Source of the DNA: Nitrososphaerota archaeon
Lineage (GTDB): Archaea; Thermoproteota; EX4484-205; JAAOZP01
Length of the DNA stretch: 64,000 bases
NCBI GenBank assembly: GCA_011605725.1
Contig: JAAOZP010000012.1
Coordinates: 74,238-138,237 of the forward strand
Reading direction: 5' to 3'
In this document: in pieces, positions 23,944 through 38,468 of the stretch
Layout: every line of letters starts with the position of its first letter
How positions within the stretch are numbered: position 1 is the stretch's first letter
Notes under the pieces: generated by a model
What the model was told of the DNA's origin: nothing
The model's input: the letters and a program-made list of their open reading frames with translations, nothing else
Database searches by the model: none
Translations under genes and position numbers: made by a program

Positions 23944-24381
23944 TCAACTTTTCCCCTTCCACCACTGGAACAGCTTTTTACTAAGCTCATGTATCTTCCT
24001 AGCGCTATCTATTGCTTTCTCAGCATCCTCCCTGGAATATAGCTCCCTAGGCGGGATGAAGGCATTCTCATCCCCGTAGAAAGCCGGACCCCTTTCTCCG
24101 GCAAGCCTTTTACTCGCAATACTGATTGTTTCCAGTTCAAATCTAAACCAGTCTGGAAGAACTCTTATGCGAGCGATTTCAGCCAATGCATCGCTGACAT
24201 CGTGCTCGCGTGGATACTCTACGCCAAGTAGTCTGAGAACAGCCTTCAGGCTTAGTTCAACGCTTTCCTGCGCCCTCCTAACAGTTCTGTGATACATCTT
24301 TTTGGCTAAGGCTTCTTCAGCCTCGTAGAGGGAATACTCAGCATCGTCAAGATAGCCTCTAGCCATAGCCTCGGTGTTCAA
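23944..24381 (-). CDS. HEPN domain protein (toxin-antitoxin partner of MNT)
   Basis: 145 aa helical protein immediately downstream of and overlapping the nucleotidyltransferase gene; R-x-x-H-like element in VEYPREHDV. Confidence 0.65.
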   Translation of the reverse strand: MNTEAMARGYLDDAEYSLYEAEEALAKKMYHRTVRRAQESVELSLKAVLRLLGVEYPREHDVSDALAEIARIRVLPDWFRFELETISIASKRLAGERGPAFYGDENAFIPPRELYSREDAEKAIDSARKIHELSKKLFQWWKGKS

Positions 24382-24917
24382 ATCTCAACGACCTCGCCAG
24401 GTTTTATATCGGGTTTCAGATCCCAGAGCCACGTTCCATTCTTAAGGTAAATGCGTCTAGCTTTGAGTTCATCCAGCCTTTTCCTAAGGTTGGTGAAAAT
24501 CGATTCCATAAAGCCATCTTTGTCAACCAAGATAACGGCATCCTCAACCATATCCAAGTATATTGGCCTATGGAACTTTGCCTCCTCCGGAGTAAGAGGG
24601 TAAAATTGCACCCATGTGTTAACACCCTTCTTTCCAAGCTCTTTATACACCGGGGTTTCTCTAAGCTTAATCAGGATCCTAGCCATAATCTCCATTTTTT
24701 CACTAATCCTTTTAGGAAGATTCTCTGCCACAAGGAGGATATCTGTGTCGCTAGTCGGCTTAGCGTCTCCCCTGGCTACGGAACCAAAGACAACTAGGCT
24801 CACCAGTTTTTCTTTAAAAAAATCATTAAGAAGATTAATAATTTCTTTAATGAATTCTCTTCTATCCGGATCTATTATACTGGTTAATCCATATCTTGGC
24901 TTCATCGATCCTTGCAT
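24378..24917 (-). CDS. Minimal nucleotidyltransferase (MNT), Pol-beta superfamily
   Basis: 179 aa; diagnostic LVVFGSVARGDAKPTSDTDILLV (GS...DxD) motif. Confidence 0.85.
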   Translation of the reverse strand: MQGSMKPRYGLTSIIDPDRREFIKEIINLLNDFFKEKLVSLVVFGSVARGDAKPTSDTDILLVAENLPKRISEKMEIMARILIKLRETPVYKELGKKGVNTWVQFYPLTPEEAKFHRPIYLDMVEDAVILVDKDGFMESIFTNLRKRLDELKARRIYLKNGTWLWDLKPDIKPGEVVEI

Positions 24918-26354: not shown

Positions 26355-27362
26355 TCAGAGATCCGTGTAATCAAGCACTACTGGGAGCCCGGGTAGGACC
26401 GGTATTCTAGTTAGGCTGCTCGCCATCCTCCAGGCTTCTATGCTCCACTTACGATGCGCAGGGGTTTCCGAACCCTTATCTTTTATTGAGAAGGCTTTCG
26501 CGAGCATTGGTGATGATGCTATGATTGATGAGACTATTCCGCCTAAGAGGCCCAGCGGATTATTCAGAAAGAATGTTGCTAAAAGCCCAGTTAGCAAGCC
26601 TACTGCGGCGAGGGCTGCTGAGGCGGTTAGCATTGTTGCCCGTGACCTAGTGCTTAACGGGTACTCGACAAAGAGGACCCTGCCCCCGGCCGCGTCCAGG
26701 AGAATCCTGTACGGCTTACCCTTGTAAGCGTACTCCATTAGCCAGAACGGGTAGTGGACTAGCCCAAGATAGTTAACTTCAACCCTCTCAAGCCTCTTTG
26801 AGCCTCCGCAGCTCCTGCTAGCTTCATCCATAGCCTGCCCAGATATTAACCGGTACGCGATATTATAGGCTTCCTCGTAGCTCAAGGTAGGCATGTAGAA
26901 CCTGCTTCTCTGGGCTTGACTCGGGTTGAAGAAGCTTCTCCCCCTCACCGAGAACGAGAGTTCCTTGGCATGGTTGTCGAGCCAGGTGCCTGTGTACGCT
27001 GCCAGAATAGGCGTGTTCCGCGTCTCAAGGTAGCTGGCCTGCCTGTCGCCGTAGGAGCAGGAGGAGTATGCCTTGCAGCTGAAAACATGATAGGGAACGT
27101 TGTAGAGCTCAGCTTTGCGAAGATTAGCCTCAGCGTTGAAATCGTCAGGTACGCCGTACCTCCTGGTTATGAACTGCATTGCTTTACGCCAGGCTGACGG
27201 GCTCTCCACGTAGGCTGGAAACATGTAGTATGTCCAGGTCTTCCCGGTTGAAAGCTCGAAGGTGTGGCCGCAGTAGGGGCAGACGATTATTGAGGCTGAT
27301 TGCGGCGCGTTTATAGAAGCGTTGCAGTTTAGGCACGTGACTGTCTTCATGCTCACTTCCAC
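26355..27362 (-). CDS. Uncharacterised protein: N-terminal zinc ribbon, central conserved domain, C-terminal transmembrane hairpin (paralog A)
   Basis: 335 aa; CLNC...CPYC ribbon, internal W-x3-Y-x-YKG-x2-YR motif (FWLMEYAYKGKPYR), C-terminal hydrophobic segments; start overlaps paralog B by 10 nt. Confidence 0.5.
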   Translation of the reverse strand: MEVSMKTVTCLNCNASINAPQSASIIVCPYCGHTFELSTGKTWTYYMFPAYVESPSAWRKAMQFITRRYGVPDDFNAEANLRKAELYNVPYHVFSCKAYSSCSYGDRQASYLETRNTPILAAYTGTWLDNHAKELSFSVRGRSFFNPSQAQRSRFYMPTLSYEEAYNIAYRLISGQAMDEASRSCGGSKRLERVEVNYLGLVHYPFWLMEYAYKGKPYRILLDAAGGRVLFVEYPLSTRSRATMLTASAALAAVGLLTGLLATFFLNNPLGLLGGIVSSIIASSPMLAKAFSIKDKGSETPAHRKWSIEAWRMASSLTRIPVLPGLPVVLDYTDL

Positions 27363-28315
27363 TTCTCCTCCCTAACGTCGCTAACAGCCTTACTCGCCAG
27401 GAGGGCTCCGGCTGCTGAAACAAGTATGAAGCCGAGTACTGGAAACCATTCTCTGAAAGACGGCAGGAGGGCCAGTATGAAGGCGCCTGCCGCAACTGAC
27501 AGGATGCTTCCGAGTATGTACAGTATTCTCTGGCCTAGGAAGACTGGTTCCGAAACCCTTAGGAATTGAAGGTTGTAGCCTGAGACGCTTGCCCTATACA
27601 TTCCACCCTTATACTTGTATACGAGGCTCCACATCGGAGCCAGCAGTATCCAGAGCGAGTTCACCCTGGCCTCGCAGGAATAATAGTAGAAGCCGTCTAA
27701 GCCGTTGGATGAGCGTGTGCTTTCCCTCAGCTCGTCCTCAACCATGTCCTTAAGCTCGTCCTCAGCCTCCTCAGGGAGAAGCTCAGCGTTTAAAACCTGT
27801 AGCCCAACGTTCCTCCAGTCTACCGCAGCTAGGGGTTGAGGGTCTTTAGCGGACTTCGCCTGGCTCACAAGCTCCTCCAAGCCGTACTCAGCAGCCTCCC
27901 TCCTAGCCGTGAAGGCGAGCCTCATCGAAGTGTTGAAAGACCCTTTCTTCGTCACGGTCCTGGTGACGAACGATTTACCCCTTTTCTCAGTAACCCTCCG
28001 GAAACCGGACCACTCGACGAAAGCGGAAACATCCCCCATGAGAATCGGCACGTAGAAGCCCTGAGCCTCGACAAGCTCAATGTCGCCGTAGACCCTGCTC
28101 ATATCCGGGTCGCTCCTCATCCTGCTCCAGAAGGCGTTCACCACCTCATCCCTTGTCCGAGTCGGCAGTATGAATATTTCAAACCTCCCTGTTGAGAACC
28201 AGTTAACCGTCCCACAGTATTCGCACACGCATGCTATTGTCTCAGGAGTGTAATTCAAGGGAGCACCGCAGTTTGAGCATTTGAAGACCTTTTCAGATAT
28301 GGTTGACTCTGTCAA
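27353..28315 (-). CDS. Uncharacterised protein: N-terminal zinc ribbon, central conserved domain, C-terminal transmembrane hairpin (paralog B)
   Basis: 320 aa; CSNC...CEYC ribbon, motif MWSLVYKYKGGMYR, two C-terminal hydrophobic helices; start overlaps upstream gene by 4 nt. Confidence 0.5.
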   Translation of the reverse strand: MTESTISEKVFKCSNCGAPLNYTPETIACVCEYCGTVNWFSTGRFEIFILPTRTRDEVVNAFWSRMRSDPDMSRVYGDIELVEAQGFYVPILMGDVSAFVEWSGFRRVTEKRGKSFVTRTVTKKGSFNTSMRLAFTARREAAEYGLEELVSQAKSAKDPQPLAAVDWRNVGLQVLNAELLPEEAEDELKDMVEDELRESTRSSNGLDGFYYYSCEARVNSLWILLAPMWSLVYKYKGGMYRASVSGYNLQFLRVSEPVFLGQRILYILGSILSVAAGAFILALLPSFREWFPVLGFILVSAAGALLASKAVSDVREEKWK

Positions 28316-28716
28316 CGCCTACCAATCCTTGAAACCATTACCCCGACCACGACGATTATTATGAGGGATATGCTCAGGTTCAGCGGCAGGTTTCCGGTGA
28401 GAAGTGTTAGTAAGAGTGAGAAACCGAGGCAGCACATCACTAGTCCCCAAATAAGGTAATACTTAAAGTCGGCAGCGTAAATCGAGAAGAAAATAGTGTA
28501 GAACCCAAGCATGATGAGCGGCAGTGAAACTAGAGTAAGCGGTTCACCGTAGCCTGTTGAAAACAGTATGCCGTCTACGCCTATTGAGACTAGCAGGACA
28601 GCCAGCGCGTAGCTCCCATACCCGGCTTTTCTACTCATCTCATTAGCCTCACAACCACAAGGCGAGCTTTGAATATATAACTTTTCCCTCATCTTCGTCA
28701 AGGATTGAAGGGACAT
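28312..28716 (-). CDS. Small polytopic membrane protein
   Basis: 134 aa (or ~108 aa from an internal Met) with 3-4 hydrophobic helices; start shares one nucleotide with the ATPase stop (TAATG). Confidence 0.4.
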   Translation of the reverse strand: MSLQSLTKMREKLYIQSSPCGCEANEMSRKAGYGSYALAVLLVSIGVDGILFSTGYGEPLTLVSLPLIMLGFYTIFFSIYAADFKYYLIWGLVMCCLGFSLLLTLLTGNLPLNLSISLIIIVVVGVMVSRIGRR

Positions 28717-29996
28717 TACGCACCTCGCCTCAATTTCCTCGTTATGCTTGCCAATTCTTCTGGGCCAAGCTCCTCGTGAGAACCCGACACTCTGGGAGGC
28801 TTCTCGCTGAGACTTATGAGCCCTGCCCTCGGTATTCCTTGGGAATGAATTAGTTCTATAGATCTCCTAGCTTCACTCTCGCTGATCTCCCCTATCTTAA
28901 CTTCATACCCTATCATCGGGGCCCTGCCCTTCGAATCCAAGATGACTATATCCACATCCCCCTTCCCCCCAGGCAGAATCATGTAGCTCCTCACCCCTCC
29001 TAGATACTCGGCAAGCATCTCCCCCAGGCTAAACTGTAGCTCCCTACCCAACACGCTTAGAATAATGCCTTCATCTATTTTTACGCGCGGCGATTCGCTG
29101 ATGTTCAGCTTCTGGTCAAGATAATAGACTAGCGAGAGCAGGGGAGACCTGTGCTTGAAATAGTTCCTCGAACCCCTGGTTTTCCATAGCGGGATTTTCT
29201 CTAGAATCCCCATGCAGGTAAGCCTTTCAAGCAAACCGGTTACTGTTGGAAGGCCGCCAGATATCAGGTTGTTCGCGGTTAAAACCCCTGAGATCTCCGC
29301 TGGCATCCATATGCCTCCTCCCACTATCCTGATGACCGCGTCGTAAACCCTTGTTAACATCCTCTCCTCCTCCTCAAAAACCTCTCCGACAAGCCCAGGT
29401 GCTGACGCAACGAAGTATTGAATCTTATTGCGGATTTCTGAAAAAACATCCTTTTCGAATGAGACCATAGGGATCACCCATGGGTCTCGGACAATCAGCC
29501 CCCATAGTAAGGCGTTCCTGAGGGAAGAACATATCTTACTGAGAGAGAGAACAGCGTCAGAGTAGCTTATCAAGTCCACCTTGAATGGCGAGAACAAGCC
29601 TAGGAGAGGACTCTTTCTCTCGAAAACCCTTCTCACGATGCTGAGGCTCGAACCGCTTGCAACCAGCCTTCCGTTCGGATGGTTCGCGGCAATCGAGTCC
29701 CAATACTTATCTGGCAACCTTTGAAACTCATCCAATAGGACAACCCTTCCATCCCTCAAGAGGTTTCCGATACGTCTAACCGCCTCCTCAGGATTAACAT
29801 GTGAAAAACCGTTTTCATCCCAAGCGGCAACGCTGCCAGACCTGGTCACCATAAAGTAGTTAGACTGGGTGAAAACCCTTTTTAGCAGGAAGGTCTTCCC
29901 GGTTTTCCGCCTCCCGTAAACCAGTATCCATCCTCTTAGACCTCTTAATTCGTCTTCCTCTCTCCTGCTTACTACGATATGAGGAATATTCTCCAT
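28716..29996 (-). CDS. Archaeal-type AAA+ ATPase with C-terminal DUF234-like domain
   Basis: 426 aa; Walker A GRRKTGKT, Walker B VVLLDEF; architecture resembles the PF01637 archaeal ATPase plus DUF234 C-terminus. Confidence 0.65.
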   Translation of the reverse strand: MENIPHIVVSRREEDELRGLRGWILVYGRRKTGKTFLLKRVFTQSNYFMVTRSGSVAAWDENGFSHVNPEEAVRRIGNLLRDGRVVLLDEFQRLPDKYWDSIAANHPNGRLVASGSSLSIVRRVFERKSPLLGLFSPFKVDLISYSDAVLSLSKICSSLRNALLWGLIVRDPWVIPMVSFEKDVFSEIRNKIQYFVASAPGLVGEVFEEEERMLTRVYDAVIRIVGGGIWMPAEISGVLTANNLISGGLPTVTGLLERLTCMGILEKIPLWKTRGSRNYFKHRSPLLSLVYYLDQKLNISESPRVKIDEGIILSVLGRELQFSLGEMLAEYLGGVRSYMILPGGKGDVDIVILDSKGRAPMIGYEVKIGEISESEARRSIELIHSQGIPRAGLISLSEKPPRVSGSHEELGPEELASITRKLRRGA

Positions 29997-30094
29997 AGAA
30001 TATTCCCATTAGAATATTCTTATAAACTTTTAGCTTATCCTACACACCAGTTCAGATTTGCTTCTTAACTATCGAGTCTACTTGTTTATTCAAA

Positions 30095-31249
30095 CTATTG
30101 GAGCTTTGCACCACAATTGAGGCAGAACTTTGAACCCTCAGGCACCGTGGACCCGCATTTCGGACAGTTAACACTCTGAGGCTGCAACTGAGCCCCACAG
30201 TTCATGCAGAACTTTGCGCCAGCAGGGTTCTGCGTTCCGCATTTCGGACAATTCACCGTGGCCTGCATGGGTGCACCGCAGCTCATACAGAATTTAGCTG
30301 TGCTCGGGTTCTGCGCCCCGCATTTAGGGCACGCTACTGTTCCTGCTGGAGGCGCGGCAGGTGGCTGCGCCGGCGGCGGAGGTGCTTGGATGGCTGCGCC
30401 GCAGGACGGGCAGAACTTGCTTGTAGAGGGTACTTGAGCTTTGCAGCTTGGACATATGACCATTGGTGCTGCGGCAGCCTGCTGCATTAGCTGGGGCACC
30501 AGAACTATTCCTGTTCCAGCCGCCGCCCCGGGCGACTTGCTTAGGGACTCGGCGACGCTCTTAGTCGTGTCCATCGCCATGACTTGTGTCGCAGCGCCGC
30601 CGGTCTGCTTTATCCAGAACAGCCTATCCCTGTACTCCGGCGTGGTGTCGACGCCCTCAAACTTTAGGTCTATGACGTCTACGCCGACGCGCTTAAACTC
30701 CTCGTCTATCGTTGCCTTAACCTTGAACGAAACCTCCTCAAGCTTTGTGAAGACCGTCACAAGGTCGTATTTCGAGAGCTGCGTTATCAGCCTCTCGTTC
30801 ATGAAGCCCCGTAGAAAGCTGTTTACGGATTCGGTGGTGTAGGCGCTCTGCCCTCCCACGACCTCCATTACGAACGTCTTTGGGTCTCCAACTTTAAACC
30901 AGAATGCCCCGTAGAACTTCAGGGGTGCGAGCTCAACCGTCTGCCCGCTGGCTCCGAACAATCCTTTAAACTGCTTCGTGGAGACGAATATGACTGTGGC
31001 TTTGAAAGGCGTGGTTTCGAAGCCAGCCACCCTTGTTAAGACGCCTGTGAGCAGCGGAAGGTTCATCGTTGTTAAAGTATGTCTGCCAGGCCCGAAGACA
31101 TCGTAGGCTTTGCCGTCCCTGAAGAATATTGCAGCCTCATACTCGTGGACGATCAGCTGAGCACCCCAGGTTATCTCCTCCTTAGGGTATCTCCAGACGA
31201 TGTCTTCAGCCGAGGCCCCTACCCACTCTATTATCTGAGGCATCTTCAA
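30095..31249 (-). CDS. SPFH (stomatin/prohibitin-like) domain protein with four tandem C-terminal zinc ribbons
   Basis: 384 aa; N-terminal ~250 aa SPFH-like; C-terminus carries four CPxCG-x7-KFCxxCGA units separated by a Pro-rich linker. Confidence 0.6.
   Translation of the reverse strand: MKMPQIIEWVGASAEDIVWRYPKEEITWGAQLIVHEYEAAIFFRDGKAYDVFGPGRHTLTTMNLPLLTGVLTRVAGFETTPFKATVIFVSTKQFKGLFGASGQTVELAPLKFYGAFWFKVGDPKTFVMEVVGGQSAYTTESVNSFLRGFMNERLITQLSKYDLVTVFTKLEEVSFKVKATIDEEFKRVGVDVIDLKFEGVDTTPEYRDRLFWIKQTGGAATQVMAMDTTKSVAESLSKSPGAAAGTGIVLVPQLMQQAAAAPMVICPSCKAQVPSTSKFCPSCGAAIQAPPPPAQPPAAPPAGTVACPKCGAQNPSTAKFCMSCGAPMQATVNCPKCGTQNPAGAKFCMNCGAQLQPQSVNCPKCGSTVPEGSKFCLNCGAKLQ
30098..30460 (-). repeat. 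In-frame tandem coding repeats (four ~75 nt units) encoding the zinc-ribbon modules of the SPFH protein
   Basis: Repeated ccgcatttcggaca / ccgcatttagggca-type units read on the plus strand; all inside the CDS. Confidence 0.6.
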
Positions 31250-31782
31250 ACACCTCCCTTAATGGAGACTATCTCCTCCTCCCTGGAGGCTAAGGCTGAT
31301 TCAAGCTCTCTAGCCTTGGCTTCAAGCTGCTTCAAGAGACCGGGGAGAACATCCAGGCTTCCGGCGCTTGCAGCATTTTCAGCCTCCTCAGCTGTTCTAG
31401 AGACCTCTTCACAAGCTCCTAGAAGCCTATAGTCGTGCTCCATCAGCCTGTCGAGCTCAGCCTCACGAACTTTAACAAGGTCGAAGAAGCCCGCGTAACC
31501 GTAGTCAGCATGCTCAATCTTGTTTATAACCCTGTCTAGGACCGCGGAAACCCTGTTCAGATTCTTAAACAATTCGACCGCGTTTGAGTCGGCAGCCTCT
31601 CTTGAAACTGTTTTCAAACGGAACCTGGCTGCCTCAAGCTTTTTAACCATGAAATCTCTTAGAAGCTTATCTGCTTCCCTCCTAACCTCCTTCTGCTTGT
31701 ATCCCCTGTAGCCCGGGATGTAGGAAGCTATCTTCTCAGCCAGCCCTCTTTTCTCCTCATACTCCTTTATGAATTCGCTCAT
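31246..31782 (-). CDS. Coiled-coil protein of unknown function (putative partner of the SPFH protein)
   Basis: 178 aa, highly charged Glu/Lys/Arg-rich helical sequence; stop overlaps the SPFH gene start by 4 nt. Confidence 0.4.
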   Translation of the reverse strand: MSEFIKEYEEKRGLAEKIASYIPGYRGYKQKEVRREADKLLRDFMVKKLEAARFRLKTVSREAADSNAVELFKNLNRVSAVLDRVINKIEHADYGYAGFFDLVKVREAELDRLMEHDYRLLGACEEVSRTAEEAENAASAGSLDVLPGLLKQLEAKARELESALASREEEIVSIKGGV

Positions 31783-31847
31783 GAAAAGACATGATTCATA
31801 ACTAGCTTAAAAACATTACTTATAGAAGAATTTAAAAACACGTTTTC

Positions 31848-34974: not shown

Positions 34975-36813
34975 CTAGCCTATAAGATTTATCTTCTTCA
35001 GAAGCTCCAGGGAGACTTCTCGCGTTAGGCTTTCCGGCCTGGAGAGGCTTCTGAAGGCTTGTGAAACATAGAGTAGCGTTGAAACGTCTTCATCGTTTAA
35101 AACACGTATCTTAACGTTTCCAAGTGACTCCAGGGCTTTCTGGAGCTCCGGGCTGACTGGGCTTGTAGTCAGCATCACAATCCTGTCGAGCTTCCTGCTT
35201 CTCGCGAAATCTATAAGCGGCTCAATACTGCTTCTTTTAAGCCCTTCAGAAGGCTTTGGCGCTTTAATCATCACTCCAACCTGGACACCTCCGCTTGACG
35301 TATCTGTGAAAAGAAGGTCTATCTCCCTCTTCCTGGTTAAGGATACGCTTATCCTCTTCCTGCCTATGAGGCTCTGTTTACCGAGAGCTGTTTCAATAAG
35401 GCTTGAAACAGCTTTTTCCAGCAGGATCGCCCTCTCAGAGGATTTTTCAATATTGTAGAACCTTGTGATTATCTGACTTTTAACATCGCTGTCAGGTGTA
35501 ACTGGAGTCACGGCCCTGGCGGCGGGCAGACCCATTTTCATAACGGCCTCCATAGCTATCACGGTGTCAACGTAGTCTGGCTGAGTAATGCCCCTTTCAA
35601 GTCTTTCAGCAAGTATCTCGATGCATGCGAAACACTCCGACAGCAGCCTCCTGATCTCCCCACCCGAGTTCGCCCAGAGGAGTTTAACACTATTCATTGG
35701 AAACAGGTTTGAATATGCTCCCTCATCCTTACCAAGGTAGAGGGCCTTCACATACCTGTCGATTATATCCTTGGCTTCTTCCACACTTATCTTCTCAAGG
35801 CTTATCGGGGTTGAGGAGACCCTGCTTACAATGGCCGGAGCCACTCTGAACCTCTGTCCCTTCAGCTCTTCAAACATAACTGGCGTTAGAAGCAGGAGTA
35901 TGAATAATCCACCAGGACCATTATCCACAATCCTCTTCAAAGTATGGAAGAAAACGTCAATATTATCATGCACAAGCGTCTCAACCTCGTCCACAACGAT
36001 TACGAAAGGAGCGTTGCTGACAAGCTTCGACAGATTCACCAGCGTCGTCAAGAATTTTAAAGCATTCTCGTCTGACTCCTTCAAGTAATCGCTCGAATGC
36101 TTAGCACCCCAGCTCCCATAGTATGGACTCGGAAGCCACAGTATCCATTTCGCAAGGTTAGGATCGATGAACCTCCTTGTTTTCGAAGGCTCAAATCTCG
36201 TTTCAAAAATTTTCCCAAGTTCTTCAAGCTCAAGCCTTACGAGCCCAGTTATTTCAAGCATTCCTTCCTCGACAAGTTTCCTTACAGCCCTGAAATCGTT
36301 TGAAACCATGTTGAAAGCCTCCCTAGCCTTCTCAGCCTTTTTACCCAGCACCGTTGGAATCAGACCGACGCTAACAGTTCTCTGAAAAAGCTCGTAACCC
36401 ATTCTGGAAATCAACACTTGATGGAGCCTCAGGGAAAGCTCCATTAGAAATTCTTCGCTGCCGAGTGTCTCCACGACTTTTGATGCGAAGAAGATTAAGG
36501 ACGGTTTGTAAACAGAGTCTTGAATAGTCGGCATGTAGGAGAAAGGCTGACCCGGTTTCTCCTGGCTCAGAAGATATTGCAGGTGGAGGGCGAGGTGCGT
36601 CTTCCCGCTTCCAGCATCCCCTATAAGCATATCGATCTTTGGCTCTTCAAGCTTGAAAGAATAGTCGATCTCCTCCCTGATTCTTTTCAACGCCCTTATC
36701 CTGGACTCGCCGCCAAGTATCCAGATTCTACTTGGAACAGGAGTCAGTGGAAAAGGGTTGGCTTCAAGCATAAGACGGGAATACTTATTTGACGATTGCA
36801 TAATGGTAGACAC
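34975..36813 (-). CDS. P-loop NTPase with C-terminal PD-(D/E)xK-like (restriction-endonuclease-fold) domain
   Basis: 612 aa; Walker A GDAGSGKT, Walker B FVIVVDEVE; C-terminal EIDLLFTD...VQVGVMIKA resembles a D...(E/Q)xK nuclease core; likely starts at an internal Met (about 36771). Confidence 0.5.
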   Translation of the reverse strand: MSTIMQSSNKYSRLMLEANPFPLTPVPSRIWILGGESRIRALKRIREEIDYSFKLEEPKIDMLIGDAGSGKTHLALHLQYLLSQEKPGQPFSYMPTIQDSVYKPSLIFFASKVVETLGSEEFLMELSLRLHQVLISRMGYELFQRTVSVGLIPTVLGKKAEKAREAFNMVSNDFRAVRKLVEEGMLEITGLVRLELEELGKIFETRFEPSKTRRFIDPNLAKWILWLPSPYYGSWGAKHSSDYLKESDENALKFLTTLVNLSKLVSNAPFVIVVDEVETLVHDNIDVFFHTLKRIVDNGPGGLFILLLLTPVMFEELKGQRFRVAPAIVSRVSSTPISLEKISVEEAKDIIDRYVKALYLGKDEGAYSNLFPMNSVKLLWANSGGEIRRLLSECFACIEILAERLERGITQPDYVDTVIAMEAVMKMGLPAARAVTPVTPDSDVKSQIITRFYNIEKSSERAILLEKAVSSLIETALGKQSLIGRKRISVSLTRKREIDLLFTDTSSGGVQVGVMIKAPKPSEGLKRSSIEPLIDFARSRKLDRIVMLTTSPVSPELQKALESLGNVKIRVLNDEDVSTLLYVSQAFRSLSRPESLTREVSLELLKKINLIG

Positions 36814-37459: not shown

Positions 37460-37924
37460 ATGAGGGTGAAAAGGAAGCGTAAAATGGTTTTTCCCAGAAC
37501 CATGTTTGAATGCAAAGTGTGCGGGAAATGCTGCGTTGAGGATGTTAAGCGTGGTAGACGGATAGTTCTAACCGAGATTGACGCCTTAGAAATATCTAGC
37601 GCTACCGGAATAGGTTTGAACGAGTTCGCGGAGAAAAACAGTAGTGAAGCCTATCCGTACGCTATTAGGCTTGTCAACGGAAGATGCTTCTTCCTTAATC
37701 AGGACAACAAGTGCAGTATTTACCCGGTTAGACCTCTGGTGTGCAGGTTCTACCCTTTCGTAATGCATAAGATTGGAGAGACATACGTGTTTCACGCTGA
37801 CCCTTTCTGTCCAGGACTTGGGGAAGGCACTTATCTTGACGAAGAATATTTCGAAAGGCTTGTCGAGCTGGCTGAGAAGCGTTTAAAAAAGCCTACTGGG
37901 CTGTTCGAGGCGCGCCGCAGTTAG
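37460..37924 (+). CDS. YkgJ-family zinc/iron-chelating (CxxCxxCC) domain protein
   Basis: 154 aa; CKVCGKCC motif plus downstream CRFYPF and FCPG Cys motifs. Confidence 0.55.
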   Translation: MRVKRKRKMVFPRTMFECKVCGKCCVEDVKRGRRIVLTEIDALEISSATGIGLNEFAEKNSSEAYPYAIRLVNGRCFFLNQDNKCSIYPVRPLVCRFYPFVMHKIGETYVFHADPFCPGLGEGTYLDEEYFERLVELAEKRLKKPTGLFEARRS

Positions 37925-38468
37925 GGCACCTGGTCTCACTCTGCGGGAAAACAGTTCCACAATACTTGCATGAAACAGTGGATAGCACGTGCTGAATCTG
38001 GAGAGGCGGGGAAACATGTATTTCGATTGTTTTACTTGTCGCATCAGGCCGCCCTTCTACAGCAGCAACCCCCTTCAGACTCCAGGCTACGACCCTATCT
38101 AGGCTCTTGAAAGAAGGCTGGGCTCCTGGAGGTATTAGGATTTTAAACTGGTAGCTTTGGACAAAACCCTCGGGAACGTGAAGAGGCCCAGCCAACTGTG
38201 GTCTAGCTGAAAATATGACTGCAGAATCCCAGACCTGTTGCTCAACCTCCCTTTTAAGAGAAGCATTGTAAACCCTCCTGGTTCTACGTACCCGCTCAAT
38301 ACATTCAAGCTCGCACCTTATCTCCGTGCAGTCGAACTCTTCCTGAGACTCAACCTGTACTGCGCCCTCCACAGTGTCGCCAAGATAGAAGACCTGTTTA
38401 CTCAGAAACAGAGAGATGTTTACCCTGGGCGGTGTAACCTTATCCCTGAGTTTCTTAAACAGGCTCAC
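37893..38468 (-). CDS. Hypothetical protein with beta-rich N-terminal domain (possibly arrestin/Spo0M-like) and C-terminal zinc ribbon
   Basis: 191 aa; C-terminal CKYCGTVFPQSETRCPNCG zinc ribbon; 3' end overlaps the convergent YkgJ gene by 32 nt. Confidence 0.35.
   Translation of the reverse strand: MSLFKKLRDKVTPPRVNISLFLSKQVFYLGDTVEGAVQVESQEEFDCTEIRCELECIERVRRTRRVYNASLKREVEQQVWDSAVIFSARPQLAGPLHVPEGFVQSYQFKILIPPGAQPSFKSLDRVVAWSLKGVAAVEGRPDATSKTIEIHVSPPLQIQHVLSTVSCKYCGTVFPQSETRCPNCGAPRTAQ

Follow-up and report, generated by a model that had tools for sequence, protein, structure and literature searches.

A near-obligate helical partner of soluble SPFH-zinc-ribbon proteins, and its probable place in a YdjG/YdjI-like archaeal locus

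Soluble SPFH proteins and an archaeal locus

SPFH proteins serve to organise membranes in every domain of life, and the canonical ones have their own membrane anchor as well as a long coiled-coil wall or lid. A soluble branch, the Band_7_1 or YdjI (SamI)-type proteins of Pfam family PF13421, which we take to be equivalent to COG4260, has to our knowledge been studied so far in Bacillus alone, as the link between PspA and the membrane. The locus considered here is archaeal: a 64-kb stretch of contig JAAOZP010000012.1 from a Nitrososphaerota archaeon (the whole of which is called the window below) encodes an SPFH protein with four C-terminal zinc ribbons and, directly before it, a small helical protein (the partner). 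In B. subtilis, YdjI is soluble and without a hydrophobic domain, needs YdjG and YdjH for its recruitment to the membrane, and is required for the formation of PspA foci (PMC8581546). Its domains have been described (PMC11237479), and loss of SamI deregulates SamG-SamH signalling (bioRxiv 10.64898/2026.02.06.704340). The architecture published for YdjI is an SPFH domain with a zinc ribbon at the C-terminus (PMC8581546; PMC11237479), and this feature of the archaeal protein is hence already known, as is the cage architecture of HflK/C (PMC10936438).

What is new is the partner, a near-obligate helical companion of the SPFH protein for which there is no Pfam model and for which literature searches (on COG4260, on Band_7_1/PF13421, on LIMLP_15305, and on SPFH with zinc ribbon and archaea) turned up no description. 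The locus as a whole probably represents a variant form of the membrane-associated SPFH module YdjG/YdjI (SamG/SamI), with the partner as a new obligate subunit and with a function that we infer from the Bacillus system.

The SPFH protein, its helical partner and their linkage

Both open reading frames (ORFs) of the pair are real. The SPFH protein matches PF13421 with 113.5 bits (cut-off 24; E=1.4e-32) and, also above the Pfam cut-off, PF01145 Band_7 (E=1.6e-20), which confirms the SPFH fold of an N-terminus that a preliminary description of this DNA, made from the letters alone, had called SPFH-like. It is a soluble Band_7_1 protein of YdjI/SamI type, the local version of YdjI/SamI, a membrane-stress protein in Bacillus. 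No transmembrane (TM) segment was seen on direct reading of the window protein, and hydrophobic 19-mers on the Kyte-Doolittle scale number zero in every SPFH ORF of loci L001-L080, including the 98%-identical one of L001. Past residue 205, a low-complexity linker of about 55 residues, rich in Ala, Gly and Pro, leads to the ribbons. Database matches to this protein exceed 3,700 and are usually annotated as "SPFH domain-containing protein" or "membrane protease subunit (stomatin/prohibitin family)"; among solved structures, a search by sequence found a match of the ribbons to DZANK1 only.

The partner gene and the SPFH gene are found together almost without exception. A scan of species-representative genomes yielded at least 581 partner-encoding loci, in hosts such as Thermoproteota, Thermofilaceae, Bathyarchaeia, Nitrososphaeria, Chloroflexota, Actinomycetota and Planctomycetota. 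Of the 80 best-scoring loci, 79 have a Band_7_1 gene directly 3' of the partner gene on the same strand, and the remaining one is cut off by a contig end. No more than 6 nt separate the two genes in 64 of the 76 loci where the gap could be measured, a gap of +1 or -1 being the most frequent, and nearly all wider gaps belong to bacteria. The reverse test, on 80 metagenome loci picked solely by SPFH-domain similarity (the best-scoring of at least 565 candidates), found the partner directly 5' of the SPFH gene in 69 of the 70 whose upstream sequence was long enough. The one locus of this set that lacks a partner (L164, 1735-2994) has directly 5' instead a gene akin to those of the zinc-ribbon/TM proteins described below (Z), with a product of 419 aa that has a different N-terminal extension of about 140 aa and a Pro-rich linker. 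A helical partner is the rule for this SPFH subfamily and its linkage near-obligate: the two genes do belong together, as the preliminary description supposed, and the partner is not the oddity it was taken for there.

Partner and SPFH protein form a conserved and probably translationally coupled pair, and their genes are tightly coupled with either of two possible SPFH start codons. The 4-nt overlap and the 384-aa product first described require TTG at 31249; ATG at 31243, which leaves a 2-nt gap after the partner's TGA and gives 382 aa, is the likelier start because GGAGGTG lies 7 nt upstream of it and homologues begin, with MPQ[IV]IEW, exactly there. The GGAGGTG may itself serve in the translational coupling of the pair.

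The partner had been called a coiled-coil protein, and helical it is, in that AlphaFold2 (AF2) models it as a four-helix bundle (predicted local distance difference test, pLDDT, 80; predicted template modelling score, pTM, 0.72). Unlike a featureless coiled coil, however, it carries two invariant, non-heptad motifs: PGYRGYKQKEVRREADKLLR at residues 23-42, with the form PGYRGYKxKExRRExDxLxR in the family alignment, and ADYGYAGFFD at residues 92-101, with the form AxYGYAGFFD. In 38 diverse members of the family, no Pfam family was detected, nor any match to PspA_IM30 or Snf7, and hhalign of the partner against E. coli PspA (the template being a single sequence, which matches PF04012 with E=9e-49) returned a probability of 0.2%. 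Identity of the partner with PspA/ESCRT-III is rejected at sequence level on both counts, the lack of a Pfam match and the hhalign result. A fold search with the partner model retrieved generic helical bundles only, and a search of solved structures by sequence retrieved no relatives.

The one database relative of the partner is a Leptospira family without assigned function, LIMLP_15305 (NCBIfam NF047596), on which the only paper found just lists the locus tag (PMC7567364). Partner residues 3-169 align to positions 6-171 of the 175 in this model (E=1.7e-14), and because the alignment spans its full length, partner and LIMLP_15305 belong to one wider family; with 54.1 bits, well short of the 210 set as equivalog cut-off, the partner is a relative and not a member of the NF047596 equivalog. 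Against 1.84 billion representatives, a profile search collected 2,199 archaeal and bacterial clusters (50% identity) with E≤0.001, and 1,383 with E≤1e-10. Among the members are proteins of 338-339 aa (P0304, P0321, P0374) with the beta-rich DUF4178, reported from PspA, CesT-Tir and polyamine operons, fused C-terminally to the partner domain, one with an N-terminal zinc ribbon (P0103), and Chloroflexota-type members whose low-complexity tails are 200-250 aa long (P0311, P0358, P0401, P0417).

Zinc ribbons, neighbouring genes and layout of the locus

The four zinc ribbons announced in the preliminary description are there: PF13240 matches four times (E=2.8e-32), which is not attributable to chance. 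Two details of that description need amending, since a Pro-rich spacer, APPPPAQPPAAPPAG, separates ribbon 1 from ribbons 2-4 and does not precede all four, and since ribbon 1 reads CPSCKA, so that CPxCG is not found in every unit. The units are 49-71% identical at the DNA level, and Tandem Repeats Finder detects no tandem DNA repeat in the array; for these reasons the duplication is old, and a recent tandem duplication is rejected. Two ribbons are found in 66 of the 120 best database matches, three in 53 and four in one (P0121, 93% identical), with zero and one ribbon absent; the corresponding numbers for 0, 1, 2, 3 and 4 ribbons in 70 complete partner-linked genome genes are 8, 1, 56, 4 and 1, and a bacterial Band_7_1 protein from a ydjGHI-type cluster has three. 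Homologues have from none to four ribbons, usually two or three, and a fourfold array, though rare as had been surmised, is the lineage-specific extreme of a minor variation within an architecture already published.

Of the genes around the pair (Table 1), the SPFH gene is followed in the window by those of an AAA_14-type ATPase and a small multi-pass membrane protein, and two Z proteins are encoded downstream. The latter are homologous to YdjG-like proteins from ydjG-ydjH-ydjI-type clusters: P0275, a homologue of the 27353..28315 product (25% identity over 306 aa, E=3e-12), is encoded in a genome context in which Z is followed by TPM_phosphatase and then Band_7_1. Z-like genes are present on the same strand in 39 of 45 archaeal loci of at least 9 kb, and relatives adjoin the pair in Bathyarchaeia, Thermofilaceae and Actinomycetota. 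They lie downstream of the pair in the window's lineage; the order is Z, partner, SPFH and small TM protein in most Bathyarchaeia loci; and in Actinomycetota the Z genes are upstream, as Z-Z-partner-SPFH-DUF2207, which in L064 and L073 (metagenome-assembled genomes, MAGs, of Thermoleophilia and Actinomycetes) ends in a DUF2207 membrane protein of about 610 aa. The Z proteins belong with the partner-SPFH pair. Among bacterial partner-linked SPFH genes, a Z gene lies nearby in none of the eight that lack ribbons (E<1e-5) and in two of the three ribbon-bearing ones in long loci, which, small as these numbers are, suggests that the ribbon tail goes with the Z proteins and the partner with the SPFH domain itself. 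The Bathyarchaeia-typical cassette also occurs, with the same spacing and Z gene and with SPFH proteins 56-65% identical to the window's, in three contigs binned as Nitrospirales, Methanocella and Bacteroidales (L017, L040, L057), which may be mis-binned.

Directly after the SPFH gene, most archaeal loci have a gene of 99-126 aa, and an ORF with three or four TM segments follows the SPFH gene in about 45 loci. Small TM proteins of two lineages are not significantly similar by BLASTP (hhalign, 19%), and the window's has no significant Pfam family. No window neighbour matches PF04536 (TPM), and none of the eight neighbouring proteins matches NfeD. The ATPase gene, whose stop overlaps the start of the small TM gene, lies between it and the SPFH gene in L001, L003 and L005; L004 and L165 lack it and have the small TM gene directly after the SPFH gene. 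The ATPase is a variable insertion outside the conserved set, and the earlier proposal that a downstream ATPase/zinc-ribbon cassette might belong with the pair holds for the two Z proteins and fails for the ATPase. An anti-phage defence system was also considered; it is without PADLOC support, the core proteins having no match among the PADLOC defence models and the ATPase matching the candidate system PDC-S01 weakly (E=2.7e-8).

All genes of the pair and the downstream set are on the minus strand, and the nearest relative of the whole region is L001, an uncultured Thermoproteota MAG (partner 92%, SPFH domain 98% identical). The gap before the ATPase gene (29997-30094), given as 98 bp in the preliminary description, is indeed 98 nt long. 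Of the promoter or terminator considered there for this gap, the former has a candidate, a consensus-like B recognition element (BRE)/TATA sequence that predicts a leaderless transcript from the ATPase gene, and the latter does not, no T-run terminator being visible after the SPFH stop, so that transcripts may read through from SPFH into ATPase. The archaeal BRE/TATA elements were read by eye; a scan for sigma-70 promoters and intrinsic terminators, which is not applicable to an archaeon, gave counts at or below the shuffled expectation, and the 64-kb window holds no tRNA or Rfam family.

Table 1. Features of the partner-SPFH locus (window coordinates; residues of the SPFH protein in 382-aa numbering)
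Feature	Position	Strand	Remarks
Helical partner gene	31246..31782	(-)	178 aa, ORF
SPFH-zinc-ribbon gene	30095..31243	(-)	382 aa from ATG; 384 aa from TTG at 31249
Shine-Dalgarno-like GGAGGTG	31251..31257	(-)	7 nt 5' of ATG 31243, within 3' end of partner gene; read from sequence
SPFH domain	30629..31192	(-)	residues 18-205, Pfam
Four-ribbon array	30098..30460	(-)	C-x2-C-x10-C-x2-C; residues 264-281, 305-322, 332-349, 360-377
Pro-rich spacer APPPPAQPPAAPPAG	30341-30385	(-)	residues 287-301, after ribbon 1
Candidate archaeal TATA TTTTTAAG	31807..31814	(-)	putative; centre ~28 nt 5' of partner ATG; read from sequence
Further A/T-rich TATA candidates	31819-31837		5' of partner gene; read from sequence
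BRE/TATA-like AAAAG-TTTATAAG	30019..30026	(-)	centre 26-27 nt 5' of ATPase ATG (29996); read from sequence
AAA_14-type ATPase gene	28716..29996	(-)	426 aa, PF13173 E=8e-8
Small multi-pass membrane protein gene	28312..28716	(-)	134 aa as listed; homology to relatives from ~residue 23-37
Gene 27353..28315	27353..28315	(-)	AF2 pLDDT 89; homologue P0275
Gene 26355..27362	26355..27362	(-)	

The wider neighbourhood is rich in ATPases and zinc-ribbon proteins. It includes a 612-aa P-loop protein with weak AAA_22/NACHT-type matches (34975-36813, minus strand) and a protein of 191 aa (37893-38468, minus strand) that combines an Arrestin_N-like domain (PF00339, E=1.7e-9) with a zinc ribbon at its C-terminus; arrestin-like proteins are not common in archaea, and a relation to sorting of the ESCRT type has been discussed for them. 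Two overlapping small ORFs at 23944-24917 (minus strand), one HEPN-like (145 aa) and one resembling a minimal nucleotidyltransferase (MNT; 179 aa, GSxxRGD...DxD), would, judged from translation, be a putative HEPN-MNT toxin-antitoxin-type pair.

Alternative readings and comparison with described systems

In the reading that we consider probable, the pair would be part of a larger membrane-associated module together with the small multi-pass membrane protein and one or two YdjG-like proteins, which combine a zinc ribbon with an alpha/beta domain and TM. By analogy with PspA-YdjGHI/SamGHI of B. subtilis, the TM-less SPFH protein would oligomerise, the YdjG-like anchors, perhaps by way of its ribbon tail, would keep it on the cytoplasmic side of the membrane, and it would carry the helical partner along, in the position that Bacillus gives PspA, the complex serving to sense or buffer membrane stress. 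Several points weigh against this. The physical contacts, like the membrane recruitment and the physiological role, are carried over by analogy, and the partner may be said to take PspA's place in a positional sense only, because it has no similarity to PspA. Pfam finds no TPM/YdjH homologue among the window neighbours, homology of the small TM proteins between lineages is not demonstrable, Z genes are missing in some loci, and Chloroflexota retain the partner-SPFH pair where both ribbons and Z are lacking. The linkage samples tilt to closer relatives because they are best-scoring subsets, and in a Pyrobaculum locus (L166, 5001-8299, from a metagenome-derived assembly) partner and SPFH genes, although on the same strand, are 1.4 kb apart, with four opposite-strand genes between them, one for a Zip-family transporter; a 99-aa gene overlaps the SPFH stop there.

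A bolder and rather doubtful proposal is that the partner is a widespread core subunit of YdjI-type SPFH assemblies at large, either as a wall or lid supplied in trans or as a non-homologous replacement of PspA/ESCRT-III in membrane maintenance; if true, it would cover Thermoproteota, Bathyarchaeia, Nitrososphaeria, Chloroflexota, Actinomycetota, Planctomycetota and, by the family model, Leptospira. The first of these forms can be spelled out as a split SPFH cage, to which we give a minor chance: the partner would furnish the helical wall or lid in trans, YdjG-like proteins the anchor, and the conserved aromatic and basic partner motifs a surface that binds SPFH or faces the membrane. Such a division of labour is in keeping with an SPFH protein that has no TM segment and only the short low-complexity linker between residue 205 and the ribbons, and with the near-obligate adjacency and tight spacing of the genes; the pairing survives the loss of ribbons and Z, and the partner therefore probably binds the SPFH domain itself.

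That loci without Z exist, that Z order and position vary by lineage and that the window has two separate promoter-like elements would also fit a self-contained two-gene unit, for instance a cytosolic scaffold or regulator, with the zinc-ribbon/TM genes as unrelated neighbours whose synteny is confined to related archaea. We think this improbable: relatives of Z are found with the pair, variously arranged, in lineages as far apart as Bathyarchaeia, Thermofilaceae and Actinomycetota, a Z-like gene lies directly 5' of the SPFH gene in L164, Z homologues occur in ydjGHI-type clusters with Band_7_1, and in Bacillus the localisation of YdjI needs YdjG/H (PMC8581546). Least likely, and very much so, because the presence of the ATPase is patchy and PADLOC gives no support, is that the ATPase is the working, remodelling part and the six genes together make up an ATP-driven machine or a system of defence against viruses, even though the ATPase gene is on the same strand, separated by 98 nt without a T-run terminator, overlaps the TM gene start with its stop and has the weak PDC-S01 matches (E=2.7e-8), and links of AAA+ proteins to PspA/band-7 operons have been reported (PMC11237479).

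Many archaea and several bacterial phyla have the same type of SPFH protein with a different, strictly linked helical protein and have kept the YdjG-like anchors, whose travelling with the pair across archaea and bacteria extends the system beyond Bacillus. A nameless family of about 2,200 clusters gains a concrete context and a testable partner, and a route opens to the handling of membrane stress in archaea, in which few systems are based on PspA. Cultivated strains exist in the genus Pyrobaculum, which carries both genes (in the metagenome-derived assembly) and could serve for experiments.

Set beside PspA-YdjGHI (SamGHI), the window locus has the SPFH and YdjG-like components in common, the SPFH gene being clustered with those of YdjG-like proteins, but the gene at the head of the cluster, PspA in Bacillus, is from an unrelated helical family without a PspA_IM30 or Snf7 match and stands directly before the SPFH gene, a place in which one would expect a subunit that assembles with the SPFH protein. 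A small protein with three or four TM segments is encoded where Bacillus has the TPM-domain YdjH, two YdjG-like paralogues with one ribbon each replace a single protein with two, the SPFH tail has four ribbons instead of one, and the host is an archaeon. With canonical SPFH-NfeD operons and the cage-forming SPFH proteins stomatin, HflK/C and flotillin the locus shares the SPFH domain (PF01145), and membrane ring or cage oligomers would be expected by extension; unlike them, it has no NfeD neighbour, and the SPFH chain has neither an N-terminal TM segment or hairpin nor a long C-terminal coiled coil, the helical partner being a separate protein. The partner, for its part, is like PspA/IM30/Vipp1/ESCRT-III in being all-helical, of some 180-220 aa, cytosolic and encoded with a band-7 protein, and some of its family are fused to DUF4178, a domain known from PspA operons.
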